Below are positions 5,423-39,883 of a stretch of DNA of 64,000 nucleotides, piece by piece. Position 1 is the stretch's first letter. Each line of letters begins with the position of its first letter. The notes under the pieces are model-generated. The model saw only the letters and a program-made list of their open reading frames with translations, made no database searches and was not told the origin of the DNA. Where the stretch lies: contig CAVSBL010000002.1 of NCBI GenBank assembly GCA_963726255.1, forward strand, positions 1,088,001-1,152,000. The letters run 5' to 3'. The position numbers and the translations under genes were made by a program. Source of the DNA: Candidatus Bathyarchaeota archaeon (GTDB lineage Archaea > Thermoproteota > Bathyarchaeia > 40CM-2-53-6).

Positions 5423-5580
5423 CGGAGGGACTCATCACCCTCAGAGAGTGGCGGTTGGGTTACCGCTTTCTCTCTTCTTCGCATAATGTTACCGTGCAGG
5501 CATATTAGTGAATGTCGCGAATAAGTTTTGCTTCCAGAAACCTAACCTTGCGCATCCAGAAAGGAAAGTGGTGGGCCCGG
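5423..5580. repeat. ~150-bp direct repeat, copy 2, abutting the tRNA 3' end
   Basis: near-identical to 1887-2042. Confidence 0.9.
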
Positions 5581-5675
5581 AGGGATTCGAACCCTCGACC
5601 AGCAGGTTCCTCCGCTATGCATATGAGCTTCGACTTTCAGTGTCTGTCGCTCTAGCCTAGCTGAGCTACGGGCCC
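5569..5675 (-). tRNA. tRNA-Ile2(CAU) with two introns (30/31: 5629-5643; 37/38: 5608-5621)
   Basis: GGGCCCG/CGGGCCC-ACCA acceptor; removing two BHB-like introns gives a 78-nt cloverleaf with a CTCATAA loop. Confidence 0.85.
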
Positions 5676-7560: not shown

Positions 7561-7710
7561 TGGTGCTCCGGGCGGGATTTTCAGCGATTGAACCATCGCA
7601 TTCGAACCCGCGTCGCTGACTCTCTCCGCAAACTCGAGAGGCCAGCATACTCTCGGCGACATACGCCTTGACCGGGCTATACTCGGTAGCTGAACCGCTT
7701 CTACCGGAGC
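7561..7710 (-). tRNA. tRNA-Glu(CUC) with four introns (10/11: 7682-7700; 20b/21: 7652-7668; 37/38: 7622-7634; 59/60: 7578-7600)
   Basis: removing four BHB/BHL-flanked inserts gives a fully paired 78-nt cloverleaf GCTCCGG...CCGGAGC-ACCA. Confidence 0.88.
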
Positions 7711-7752
7711 CCCAACTAACCCGGAGCAATTGGACTAACGCTGTCCCACGGT

Positions 7753-7760
7753 ATTTTAAC
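7753..7760 (-). promoter_or_regulatory. TATA-like box for the tRNA-Glu precursor
   Basis: TTAAAATA about 25 nt upstream of the first GCTCCGG copy. Confidence 0.5.
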
Positions 7761-7807
7761 CGTGTGCACAGAAAAGAAAAACAGAGGAAAGAAGATGGAA
7801 GTGCCGC

Positions 7808-9433
7808 TTAGTATTCCGGCTCCCCACCTCTCGGTGGTGGAGTTGGAGGCGGCTTAGCTGCGGCTATTACATCATCAACCCTAAGAATCATTGACGCGGC
7901 TTCGGCCGCGGACCGTATTGCTTGCTCCTTCACTCGAACTGGTTCTACGACGCCCTGCTTCCTCATGTCTTTGACTCCGCCTTTGAAGACATCGACGCCT
8001 TGCGACACACCTCCTTTCTTGCCATGCGCCGAGCGGAGGGCAACCATTATGTCAATGGGGTCAAGCCCCGCGTTCTCGGCTAGGGTCTTCGGAATCATTT
8101 CCAATGTGTCTGCGAAAGCTTCTATCGCAAGTGCCTCACGCCCGCCAACCTTACTGGCATAATCACTCAACCTCTTGGAAAGTTCGGCTTCAATTGCGCC
8201 TCCGCCCGTGACGATTTTTGGTTCTTGCACCAAATCGATGGTTACGGAGAGTGCGTCTTTGAGCGCTCGTTCAGCCTCATCGACTAAGCGCTCTAAGCCT
8301 GCACGGATAAGGACGCTAACTGACCGTGGGTCCTTGCAGCCTTCAATGAAGACCATCTTGTCGTCTCCAATCTTTCTTTCTTCAACAAGGTCTGCTTTTC
8401 CCAGGTCGCTGGCTTTCAGGTCGTCCAGGTTTGTGATGATTCTTCCGCCCGTTGCTCTTCCTAACTTTTCCATGTCTGATTTCTTGATTCTTCGTACGCC
8501 CAGTATTCCTTCCTTTGCGAGGTAGTGCTGTGTAGTGTCGTCAATTCCTTTCTGGCAAAGGACTACGTTTGCGCCCGAAGTTTTGATCTTGTCCACCATT
8601 TCCTTCATCATGCGAGTTTCCTCGTCAAGGAAGGCCTTCATCTGGGTCGGGTCCTCGATGCGTATTTCAGCGGATATCTCGGTCTTTTCAATTTCAAGGG
8701 CTGCATCTATAAGCGCAATCTTAGCGTTCTTAACCTGCTTTGGCATTCCTGGGTGAACAACTTCCTTGTCGACGATAATCCCCCTGACCAGTTGGGTGTC
8801 GAGGAGGCTTTTGCCTTCCTTCTTTACGAGCTGCACGTTGTCGATGTCGGCGTACCATGCATCGCCGCGCTTTTCCTTAACCAGTTGAATTGCCTCAATG
8901 GCGATGTCGGCGAAGTGTTCACGGGCACCACCTAAACCCTTGCTATGCATCGCCGTCATGGCAACTTTCTTGAGAGCAACTTTGTCCTCAAGTTTAATCG
9001 GTTCAGATAGGGAATCGAGAATCTGAATCGCTCTGTCCGCCGCCTTCTTGTAACCCGCAACAATGATCGTTGGGTGAACGTCGTCATCGAGCAAGTCTTG
9101 GGCTCGTTTCAGTAGCCCGCCCGCAAGGATTACCGCCGTCGTAGTCCCGTCGCCAACTTCATCATCCTGTGTCTTGGCAACCTCAACCATCATTTTCGCG
9201 GCTGGATTCTGAACATCAACTTCGTCAAGGACCGTGGCCCCGTCATTTGTTACAGTCACATCGCCGAGGCTGTCAACGAGCATCTTGTCCATTCCGCGTG
9301 GGCCCAATGTCGTTTTCACAACTTCAGAAACAATGATCGCCGCTGTAATGTTGCTCCGTTGAGCGTCGCGGCCTCTATTGCGGGTGGATCCTTCCTTTAG
9401 AATGAGTACACGTTGACCAGAGAGCTCGGACAT
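7808..9433 (-). CDS. ths: thermosome subunit (group II chaperonin)
   Basis: [16 protein letters not shown] motifs. Confidence 0.97.
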
Positions 9434-39472: not shown

Positions 39473-39748
39473 ATGGCCGATTCGCTGACCACGACGATTA
39501 CAATCCTTGGGGCGCTCGTCGTACTAATTGGGCTAATCTTCTGGATCCGAAGAGTTCGACAAAAAGGAGACGGCGGGCCTTTCATCGAACTTGAGAAATT
39601 GGTCAAGTGCAGGTCCTGCGGTTCTCTGATACCGGAAGGTGTCCGCAAATGCGCTTTTTGTGGCGTCTGGCAACGCCAAGAGGATTCCGGAGAACAAATA
39701 AATGGCCCAAAGAGCAATGGCACGAACGCCGCCGAAATGGCACACTAG
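39473..39748 (+). CDS. membrane-anchored zinc-ribbon protein
   Basis: N-terminal TM; CRSCG...CAFCG; stop overlaps tRNA G1. Confidence 0.7.
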   Translation: MADSLTTTITILGALVVLIGLIFWIRRVRQKGDGGPFIELEKLVKCRSCGSLIPEGVRKCAFCGVWQRQEDSGEQINGPKSNGTNAAEMAH

Positions 39749-39883
39749 CCGCCGTATGCGCATTCGCGTAGACGACAGCTCAGTGGTGGAGCAGCGGACC
39801 CTTCTCAGTAAGGGGCTGAAGCTGTTAAGCGGGCAGACACAGCTACCCGTTGGTCGCAGGTTCGAGCCCTGCCGGCGGCGCCA
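39748..39883 (+). tRNA. tRNA-Asn(GUU) with three introns (8/9: 39756-39776; 30/31: 39798-39820; 37/38: 39828-39844)
   Basis: removing three BHB-flanked inserts gives a fully paired 75-nt cloverleaf GCCGCCG...CGGCGGC-GCCA. Confidence 0.9.

Follow-up and report, generated by a model that had tools for sequence, protein, structure and literature searches.

The window, that is, the whole stretch of DNA analysed here (64,000 nucleotides (nt); G000:C2:1088001-1152000), belongs to the metagenome-assembled genome of an uncultured soil archaeon of the Bathyarchaeia and carries three tRNA genes. Two of them, encoding tRNA-Glu(CUC) and tRNA-Asn(GTT), present a short element in the leader, a few nucleotides upstream of the tRNA, which is complementary to the 3' end of the same tRNA, and both are interrupted by a predicted bulge-helix-bulge (BHB) intron next to the acceptor stem. 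This leader element, its association with introns in that position and its possible role in the maturation of the precursor tRNA (pre-tRNA) are the subject of this analysis.

The tRNA-Glu(CUC) gene (7561..7710, minus strand, 150 nt) contains four predicted BHB introns, located after position 10, in the D loop, at 37/38 and in the T loop, and reached a cloverleaf score of 23.5 with the intron solver. Reading along the minus strand, the TATA-like box TTAAAATA (7752..7759), in which GGTTAAAATA is kept in 19 same-genus orthologues, is followed after 23 nt in this genome by the leader element TGCTCCGGG (7720..7728). Then come a variable spacer of 9 nt (7711..7719), the true acceptor 5' strand GCTCCGG of tRNA positions 1-7 (7704..7710), U8, A9, the first intron (19 nt, 7682..7700, found by the BHB scan, with edges that shift by 1-2 nt owing to a repeated AG) and the D arm. 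The 3' end, ...CCCGGAGCACCA, terminates at 7561; within it, G64, C65, the acceptor 3' strand (66-72) and A73 (GCCCGGAGCA, 7564..7573) form the target of the leader, and the CCA is encoded at 7563-7561. The initial annotation had described a copy of the acceptor 5' strand at 7728-7720, 17 nt upstream of the tRNA and able to form 9 base pairs (bp) with the 3' strand. Its coordinates and string are correct on the minus strand: GCTCCGG (7727-7721) inside the element is identical to the acceptor 5' strand, the two starts are 17 nt apart, and the element matches its own 3' end over 9 bp, with G7720 able to pair with C65. At the other edge T7728 lies opposite A73, but it is probably promoter position -1; the 9 bp stand as a sequence match, and the T(-1):A73 pair may not exist in the RNA, whose predicted start is the following G. 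The element is kept in 19/19 genus orthologues, two of them with a single C-to-T change that preserves a G.U pair.

The tRNA-Asn(GTT) gene (39748..39883, plus strand, 136 nt) shows the same arrangement. The TATA-like box AAATAAAT (39696..39703, read in the sequence) precedes the leader element CGCCGCCG (39727..39734), which can form an 8-bp helix with the 3' end of its own tRNA and in which GCCGCCG (39728-39734) is identical to the acceptor 5' strand; C39727 is opposite G73, but it is probably also promoter position -1. A spacer of 13 nt (39735..39747) separates the element from the true acceptor 5' strand (39748..39754), which was placed from the sequence, the BHB scan and the orthologues. 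The first intron (21 nt, 39756..39776) follows U8. The 3' target consists of the acceptor 3' strand CGGCGGC plus G73 (39873..39880), followed by the encoded CCA (39881-39883), and the 3' end CGGCGGCGCCA terminates at 39883. The gene has at least three introns, of which only the first is relied on here, since the solver was wrong on the later ones. The claim that a copy lies at 39727-39734, 20 nt before the true 5' strand (starting at 39748), was verified in both string and distance. The third tRNA of the window, with anticodon CAT (Ile2 or Met; 5569..5675, minus strand; 48 bits with the Rfam tRNA model over 5675-5572), served for comparison. It has no intron near position 8-10 and no leader element, its best leader helix being 3 bp, in agreement with the initial annotation, which had named a tRNA-Ile without such an intron or copy.

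In the genome, tRNA genes were located by a custom T-arm/acceptor scan plus a BHB intron solver. The solver listed candidates for a BHB, defined as four central base pairs flanked by 3-nt bulges on opposite strands, and the deletion sets giving a cloverleaf were chosen. ARAGORN called no tRNA in the window and 30 in the genome, many with wrong anticodons; Rfam at the gathering score recovered one of the three window tRNAs and 17 in the genome, and tRNA-Glu(CUC) was missed by both. For each gene, the longest Watson-Crick helix between the 45-nt leader and its own 3' end (T-stem 3' strand, acceptor 3' strand, N73 and CCA) was taken as the measure of complementarity. Five of 36 tRNA genes reached 8-9 bp, namely those for Asn, Glu(CUC), Cys, Trp and Leu(CAG), and every element matches the acceptor sequence of its own tRNA. 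By comparison, only 4 of 1192 mismatched leader/3'-end pairs gave a helix of at least 8 bp, and four tRNAs located later reached 4-5 bp only. The match between leader and 3' end is real and far beyond chance.

Furthermore, the match is coupled to the position of the intron. All five matching genes have a BHB intron spliced after position 8-10. Introns in this position were found in seven tRNAs (Asn, Glu(CUC), Cys, Trp, Leu(CAG), Leu(GAG) and Gly(CCC)), so the element occurs in 5/7 tRNAs of this kind vs 0/34 of the other tRNAs located. This is the genome-wide co-occurrence with introns near positions 8-11 that the initial annotation had suggested looking for.

First introns were used only where they were confirmed by eye or by orthologues. 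The central helix presents 4/4 pairs in the Glu, Trp, Leu(CAG), Leu(GAG) and Gly(CCC) introns and 3/4 in those of Asn and Cys. In tRNA-Glu, positions 5-8 pair with the 3' part of the intron (4/4 pairs, with 3 bp on the intron side); in tRNA-Asn, positions 3-6 do so (3/4 pairs, with 5 bp on the intron side), and in four distant Asn orthologues (L051, L052, L055 and L056) GGCG replaces GACG, restoring 4/4 pairs as judged by eye. The acceptor positions attributed to these helices from the outset, 5-8 in Glu and 3-6 in Asn, coincide with those of the BHB scan. Moreover, the first introns pass the relaxed BHB criterion (hBH or HBh'), with an intron-side helix of 3-7 bp and an exon-side helix of 0-2 bp; the cloverleaf scores after intron removal are 21.5-23.5 for Glu, Cys and Leu, Asn and Trp being only partly solved; and the spliced junction is directly visible in intron-less orthologues. 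Judged from sequence, the predicted first introns of the five tRNAs have the central helix, flanking helix and cloverleaf expected of archaeal BHB introns. Their central helices occupy acceptor bases 3-8, which implies that the lower or middle part of the acceptor stem must unpair from the 3' strand for the splice motif to form. Regarding the processing machinery, the genome encodes a full-length archaeal RNase P RNA (173.6 bits), two open reading frames (ORFs) of the splicing-endonuclease family (PF01974; about 200 and 192 amino acids) and one RtcB ORF (PF01139). Two endonuclease-family genes, at C2:748279-748530 and C2:1451759-1451998, are compatible with what we take to be the heterotetrameric type tied to relaxed motifs.

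The coupling was then followed in the Glu, Asn, Cys and Trp orthologues of 40 relatives, drawn from the genus, the family and the order, and in 80 thermosome-adjacent Bathyarchaeia loci, counting distinct sequences and setting the helix threshold at 7 bp or more. Among intron-bearing genes, 96/98 have such a helix (Asn 44/44, Cys 19/19, Glu 17/18 and Trp 16/17), vs 2/38 of the intron-less genes (Cys 0/6, Glu 1/26 and Trp 1/6), so the co-occurrence expected in relatives was borne out. The two intron-bearing exceptions are a Glu gene (L072) in which one C-to-T change leaves 5 bp of Watson-Crick pairing, or 10 bp including one G.U, and a Trp gene with 6 bp. The Glu first intron is missing in L018, L019 and eight loci of other families. 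Asn genes without the intron (GCCGCCGTAGCTCAG) are common at class level, outside the order to which the window belongs; in 12 such loci, the best helix was 3-6 bp in the six whose 3' end lies in the retrieved piece, and no such string was seen by eye in the other six.

The association also varies from tRNA to tRNA within single genomes. Intron and element are both present in tRNA-Trp and both absent from tRNA-Cys and tRNA-Glu in G025 and in G039; G033 and G037 have both in tRNA-Cys and neither in tRNA-Trp, and G024 has both in tRNA-Cys and neither in tRNA-Glu. Such differences suggest that intron and element were gained or lost together more than once, and not inherited as a single block. At a larger scale, the combination of an exact copy and the intron in tRNA-Asn was found in 12/401 genomes of the phylum, 12/60 within the class and 0/341 outside it, with a pattern that detects exact copies only. 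The class-wide pattern GCCGCCG-N(4-25)-GCCGCCGT gave a similar result with its reversed control, with a high background in GC-rich genomes, and was used only together with locus data. In all, the finding takes in five tRNA families and reaches the level of the class Bathyarchaeia.

The comparison of orthologues also shows which property of the element is conserved. Exact GCCGCCG is found upstream in 44/44 distinct intron-bearing Asn loci from at least ten families, while the spacer that follows drifts both in sequence and in length (45 different spacers in 47 distinct Asn loci, 5-23 nt; 16 different spacers in 16 distinct Glu loci, 5-11 nt). The element displays the conservation against drifting flanks that is expected of a functional RNA pairing element. 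Beyond the copied stretch, the eighth base of the Glu element (u8) is G in 16/16 loci and the ninth (u9) is C in 13, T in 2 and A in 1; C65 and G64 are the pairing partners of u8 and u9, and the true strand has U8 A9 at these places. In other families, the Trp elements run into the T stem (GGGGCCGAAG or TGGGGCCGAAG). Eight Asn genes outside the order have the intron and lack the exact copy, and a related or shifted string was found in 8/8 of them by script or by eye. The script detected 7-10 bp of Watson-Crick pairing in 6/8: TGGCGCCGCC in three genes (10 bp), GGCGCCG in two and GCGCCGC in one. These shifted elements pair with G73, C74, C75 and A76. Of the other two genes, one has 5 bp of Watson-Crick pairing (GGTGCCGC), or 8 bp with one G.U by eye, and in the other GGCGCCG was seen by eye, its 3' end lying outside the retrieved piece. 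Finally, five internal substitutions of the element (L012, L018, L199, L231 and L264) all preserve a G.U pair, in a small sample and with transitions being common anyway. Taken together, the drifting spacers, the flanks that are not copied, the shifted elements and the changes that keep G.U pairs indicate that what is kept is the pairing with the 3' end. Hence, selection appears to act on complementarity to the 3' end and not on identity to the 5' strand. The description of the element as a copy of the 5' strand has to be replaced accordingly, as the shifted TGGCGCCGCC, which pairs with G73 and CCA, illustrates.

These data bear on the idea that the element is a functionless relic, either a duplication of the 5' end that arose with the intron or an old 5' strand left at the promoter after insertion of a new copy plus intron. 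Such an origin would agree with the position of the element, where a leaderless gene would start, with the joint gain and loss of intron and element, and with the resemblance in G000 between GTTAGTCCAATT-GCTCCGG and GTTAG-TTGGG-GCTCCGG. A relic, however, would hardly retain seven exact nucleotides in every intron-bearing Asn locus beside spacers that almost all differ, the shifted elements and the flanks complementary to 64, 65 and 73-76 copy nothing in the 5' strand, and the substitutions preserve G.U pairs. We regard the relic as quite unlikely.

A different possibility is that the transcript has no leader: the upstream copy would then provide the 5' strand of the mature tRNA, and the segment from its end through the second copy would be an extra intron. 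The initial annotation had argued that the duplications do not fit a BHB. In agreement with this, none of eight registers gives a BHB in Asn and Glu, nor in Trp (at most 2/4 central pairs in Asn and 3/4 in Glu and Trp, with inadequate flanking helices). Only in tRNA-Cys does the CCGG palindrome produce a 4/4 central helix for the removal of a 12-nt repeat unit. The predicted transcription start, which coincides with the upstream copy, and the folding models, which keep this copy paired to the 3' strand, would also suit an extra intron. On the other hand, shifted elements could not give a correct 5' end, u8 taken as position 8 would be A, G or C and not U, and the RNase P RNA needed for leader removal is present, all of which makes this explanation very unlikely. 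As for the tRNA-Cys leader itself (L146 and orthologues; G000:C2:667484-667495), the palindrome CCGG in GCCGGGG lets the two copies pair with each other, presenting the 12-nt unit as a bulge-helix-loop, an arrangement that is impossible for Asn, Glu and Trp.

The position of the promoter suggests where the transcript begins. In archaea, initiation usually takes place at a purine about 22-27 nt after the TATA box. A TATA-like 8-mer ends 21-23 nt before the element in 17/17 distinct Glu loci and 21-29 nt before it in 42/43 Asn loci, and the transcript would accordingly start at the first G of the element. In intron-less genes, the distance from the TATA-like box to the mature 5' end is 22-39 nt in most loci, which corresponds to leader lengths between about 0 and 15 nt. 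Most loci have a pyrimidine at position -1, also in tRNA-Cys, where pairing with U73 is impossible; the apparent pair with N73 may therefore reflect the initiator and not the RNA. The same observations could be read as a signal at the DNA level, that is, an initiator, a promoter-proximal element or a protein-binding site located at the predicted start. We consider this extremely improbable, because the sequence differs for each tRNA and always matches its own 3' end, with no common motif, and because intron-less tRNAs have no element despite the same type of promoter.

The behaviour of the precursors was modelled with ViennaRNA at 37 C, using transcripts from the predicted start to the CCA. 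In the presence of the leader, the model pairs the 3' strand with the element with a probability of 0.82-1.00 per base (six of seven bases in Leu(CAG); 0.99-1.00 over the Glu target), and the native acceptor stem has a probability of 0.00; once the leader is removed, the native acceptor stem recovers a probability of 0.83-1.00. With the leader, the probability of the BHB central helix is 0.94 for Glu and 0.95 for Trp; it drops to 0.00 once the leader is taken away and takes values of 0.24 and 0.18, respectively, with shuffled leaders. For Asn, Cys and Leu(CAG), the model prefers other registers of the same hairpin. In energetic terms, the leader reduces the cost of the BHB conformer by 2.8-6.2 kcal/mol vs no leader, and against the median of shuffled leaders the gain is clear only in Cys (7.0 vs 11.9), Glu (1.9 vs 4.8) and Asn (7.2 vs 9.0). 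The folding test proposed in the initial annotation came out favourably in that the leader takes the 3' strand with a probability close to 1 and frees the Glu and Trp BHB; it remained mixed in the comparison with shuffled leaders and left the release of the leader unexplained.

Considering all of the above, it is likely, although by no means certain, that the leader acts in cis by holding the 3' strand, so that the true 5' strand is free for the splice motif, the first exon of 8-10 nt is tethered and RNase P is postponed. The element would be the 5'-terminal part of the primary transcript, paired with the acceptor 3' strand and, in some genes, also with N73, CCA and the last T-stem bases. The leader, the true 5' strand and the first intron would be made first, and the last two would fold into the BHB using acceptor bases 3-8. 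The 3' strand, on emerging, would be captured by the free leader element rather than invading the BHB, and the splice motif would thereby stay accessible to the splicing endonuclease. After cleavage, the first exon (leader plus 8-10 nt) would remain tied to the tRNA body until ligation by RtcB; without the tether, it would be an oligonucleotide of 8-10 nt held by only four pairs to the excised intron. The substrate of RNase P would be withheld until the intron is gone. After splicing, the true 5' strand could displace the leader by strand exchange, with the assistance of tertiary folding, and removal by RNase P would make the step irreversible. The transcription start, the pairing in the RNA, the effects on splicing and on RNase P and the release step are all inferred. 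The interpretation of the initial annotation, a cis-acting chaperone that occupies the 3' strand, is supported in this form by all the computational tests at hand, with the tether added and the copy replaced by a complement of the 3' end. The coupling, the matching of each element to its own tRNA, the spacing of the start and the models speak for it, although the element is not indispensable.

Several points weigh against this reading. Firstly, and most clearly, tRNA-Gly(CCC) (G000:C2:500770-500938, minus strand) has an intron after U8 and no leader element, which means that the element can be dispensed with; in a comparison of 19 orthologues, its central helix, which joins positions 3-6 to an intron string reading either GGCC or AGCC, is supported by a compensatory change, the predicted start is at G1, and the model gives the native acceptor stem a probability of 1.00 and the BHB 0.00. 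tRNA-Leu(GAG) also has an intron after U8, with only a 4-bp match at the predicted start. Conversely, the element is kept in two members of the genus that have lost the Glu intron, L018 and L019 (= L068), and an 8-bp match is present in L201, a Trp gene lacking the intron. These cases would be explained by a recent loss of the intron, and likewise by a function apart from splicing. In the models, the leader gives no clear gain over shuffled leaders in Trp (5.7 vs 6.0) and Leu(CAG) (6.4 vs 6.0), and after removal of the first or of all introns the pairing of the leader with the 3' end is still preferred by 3.5-6.5 kcal/mol. Release of the leader would thus need tertiary structure or capture by RNase P, and the nearest-neighbour model leaves it unexplained.

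The remaining points of this kind concern the data. The catalogue of 41 tRNA genes is probably incomplete, and the counts in relatives overstate the number of independent events because many of the loci come from close relatives. Classical covariation is absent, the acceptor stems being invariant within each tRNA family; the covariation check returned only the five one-sided changes to G.U and the differing sequences between tRNA families. The predicted transcript start was placed from promoter spacing alone. Three soil metatranscriptome runs contain small shares of the region, as contigs only. One contig of 154 nt from run X3 covers 7565-7714 with the four Glu introns unspliced, 11 differences and one inserted base; it ends before the Glu element and is hence silent on the start site. 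This contig comes from a relative, and it may represent precursor RNA or contaminating DNA.

Some of these facts would be accommodated if the pairing were functional but not for splicing, with the leader protecting or masking the CCA or timing RNase P, aminoacylation or quality control, and with an indirect link to the intron. Some elements pair with G73 and CCA and not with the whole acceptor strand, the element persists in the intron-less L018, L019/L068 and partly L201, the modelled pairing is still favoured after splicing, and tRNA-Gly(CCC) manages an 8/9 intron without an element. A general role of this type is nevertheless difficult to reconcile with the absence of the element from 36/38 intron-less orthologues and from the 34 tRNAs of this genome that have no 8-10 intron, almost all of which encode CCA, and with the fact that the element follows the intron from tRNA to tRNA within single genomes. 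It seems to us a rather unlikely explanation, and a role of the leader in splicing is preferred.

This role could be stronger than proposed above. The element may be an obligatory intramolecular clamp and timer, an undescribed class of pre-tRNA cis element that, by taking the place of the acceptor 5' strand, permits protein-catalysed splicing at a site forbidden by the mature fold, holds the exon and imposes splicing before RNase P; we put this forward tentatively, as possible but somewhat doubtful. If it were true, the gain of the element would be what let introns settle beside the acceptor stem in Bathyarchaeia, and tRNA-Leu(GAG), with its own leader motif, would have solved the problem in a second way. 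This motif (L145:86-92; G000:C2:2253985-2253991), conserved from -9 to -3, reads GGCCTGG or GACCTGG and is the complement of CCAGGTC, a string in the D loop of exon 2; in the comparison with L205-L218, it was observed in the 13 orthologues that have the intron, and it was not seen in Leu genes lacking this intron. It may serve as an alternative tie between the exons. The tRNA-Gly(CCC) gene (L297; G000:C2:500760-501010, minus strand), apparently leaderless, has an intron of 47 nt whose 3' GGCC pairs with GGTC (positions 3-6), orthologues having GGCT with AGCC. The 5' half of this intron contains a conserved block, TGAGTGCGAGAG, which includes GTGCG, a string complementary to positions 70-74.

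Pairings that hold RNA pieces during splicing are known from other systems. In group I introns (internal guide sequence) and group II introns (EBS/IBS), pairing holds the freed 5' exon between the splicing steps. Those guides belong to the intron of a ribozyme, whereas the tether proposed here would lie in the leader of a tRNA spliced by proteins. In bacterial and eukaryotic pre-tRNAs, pairing between leader and 3' end alters the access of RNase P, but it extends the acceptor stem and neither replaces the 5' strand nor is tied to an intron. Among archaea, the split tRNA halves of Nanoarchaeum equitans carry complementary leader and trailer sequences (PMC4090602, PMC4033280). As far as the passages covered of these papers describe them, the likeness is that a tRNA-specific extra sequence pairs to hold the pieces for the BHB endonuclease and the ligase and is later removed. 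The split tRNAs, however, come from two transcripts whose flanks form the BHB helix, whereas here a single transcript would have its leader replacing the acceptor 5' strand on the 3' strand, and removal would be by RNase P instead of the endonuclease. The genes described here do not present the features of split tRNAs, since a single TATA-like box is followed by the element, exons and introns in one continuous stretch and the element pairs at 64-76, far from the intron.

In permuted tRNA genes (Cyanidioschyzon merolae, Thermofilum pendens), the leader and trailer pair into a BHB, according to the parts covered of PMC4090602, PMC3728597 and PMC3218864. A flank of the pre-tRNA pairing elsewhere in the precursor to organise its processing is common to both systems, but no permutation, circular intermediate or terminal BHB was found here. 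Thermoproteales and other archaea possess multiple, non-canonical BHB introns (PMC4033280), and the first introns of this work are ordinary relaxed BHB introns at non-canonical positions, as in Thermoproteales; the passages of PMC4033280 covered do not speak of any leader element that goes with the position of the intron. Full-text literature searches and the portions covered of PMC4090602, PMC4033280, PMC7714728, PMC3293823, PMC3218864 and PMC3728597 returned no description of a leader element able to pair with the acceptor 3' strand and no account, in the literature searched, of how introns that compete with the acceptor stem get spliced.

A BHB formed on acceptor bases competes with a GC-rich 7-bp stem and leaves an exon of 8-10 nt, a difficulty to which the element offers a concrete and testable answer. 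Catalogues of archaeal tRNA introns outside the canonical position go back twenty years. A leader acting as proposed predicts a fixed order of processing steps and would mean that archaeal pre-tRNA leaders can carry selected structure. For annotation, where standard tools miss most of the tRNA genes of this genome, the element is an aid in placing the true 5' end of genes of this kind. Furthermore, its natural variants (exact, shifted, extended, G.U-substituted and lost) are a ready mutational series.

Other explanations and candidates were considered and discarded. A duplication of att sites does not fit repeats of only 7-10 nt that are 4-31 nt apart with only a short spacer between them and are kept from family to family even where the genomic context differs. 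A leader-trailer BHB creating the Glu 5' end, drawn by hand, has 3/4 central pairs, only with G1 unpaired, and would cut one base past the CCA. A role of the leader as C/D-box guide was dismissed since the leader has no box motifs. The gene at C2:38393-38567, taken as a case of an intron after position 9, turned out to encode tRNA-Pro(CGG) when 22 orthologues were aligned; its first intron interrupts the D loop, and its leader has no such element. A 6-bp leader match of the initiator tRNA (iMet) was an artefact of a wrong 5' end.

The tRNA-Glu(CUC) gene is located directly downstream of a thermosome gene (7808-9433, minus strand). This order, examined by script (7561-9433 in the window; L062-L141), is conserved in 30/80 Bathyarchaeia loci within a 600-nt flank. 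L127 and L140 have a different tRNA in this place (acceptor GCCGGGG, G73); its intron follows position 8, and a copy or near-copy lies upstream. Members of the genus (L003-L020) share the block GCGTTAGTCGG (7729-7742, minus strand), which follows the TATA-like box and precedes the Glu element, and in this genome the block before the element resembles the spacer (GTTAGTCCAATT vs GTTAGTTGGG), as if the unit had once been tandemly duplicated.

Throughout the genome G000, the 3' CCA is encoded in 35/36 of the tRNA genes first located, the remaining one having CTA. In tRNA-Asp(GTC) (G000:C2:1442025-1442100 and about 30 nt downstream, minus strand), an intron of 28 nt apparently interrupts the 3' acceptor strand (CC / 28 nt / AGGGC G CCA), leaving a last exon of 9 nt; no matching trailer element was seen, and the leader contains CAGGG, complementary to positions 2-6. 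The tRNA-Trp(CCA) gene (L143; G000:C2:266772-267000, minus strand) is 229 nt long and has several introns, among them a long one after the anticodon with ATGACGA and CTGA, which resemble C and D boxes and recall the box C/D guide RNA present in the tRNA-Trp intron of other archaea.

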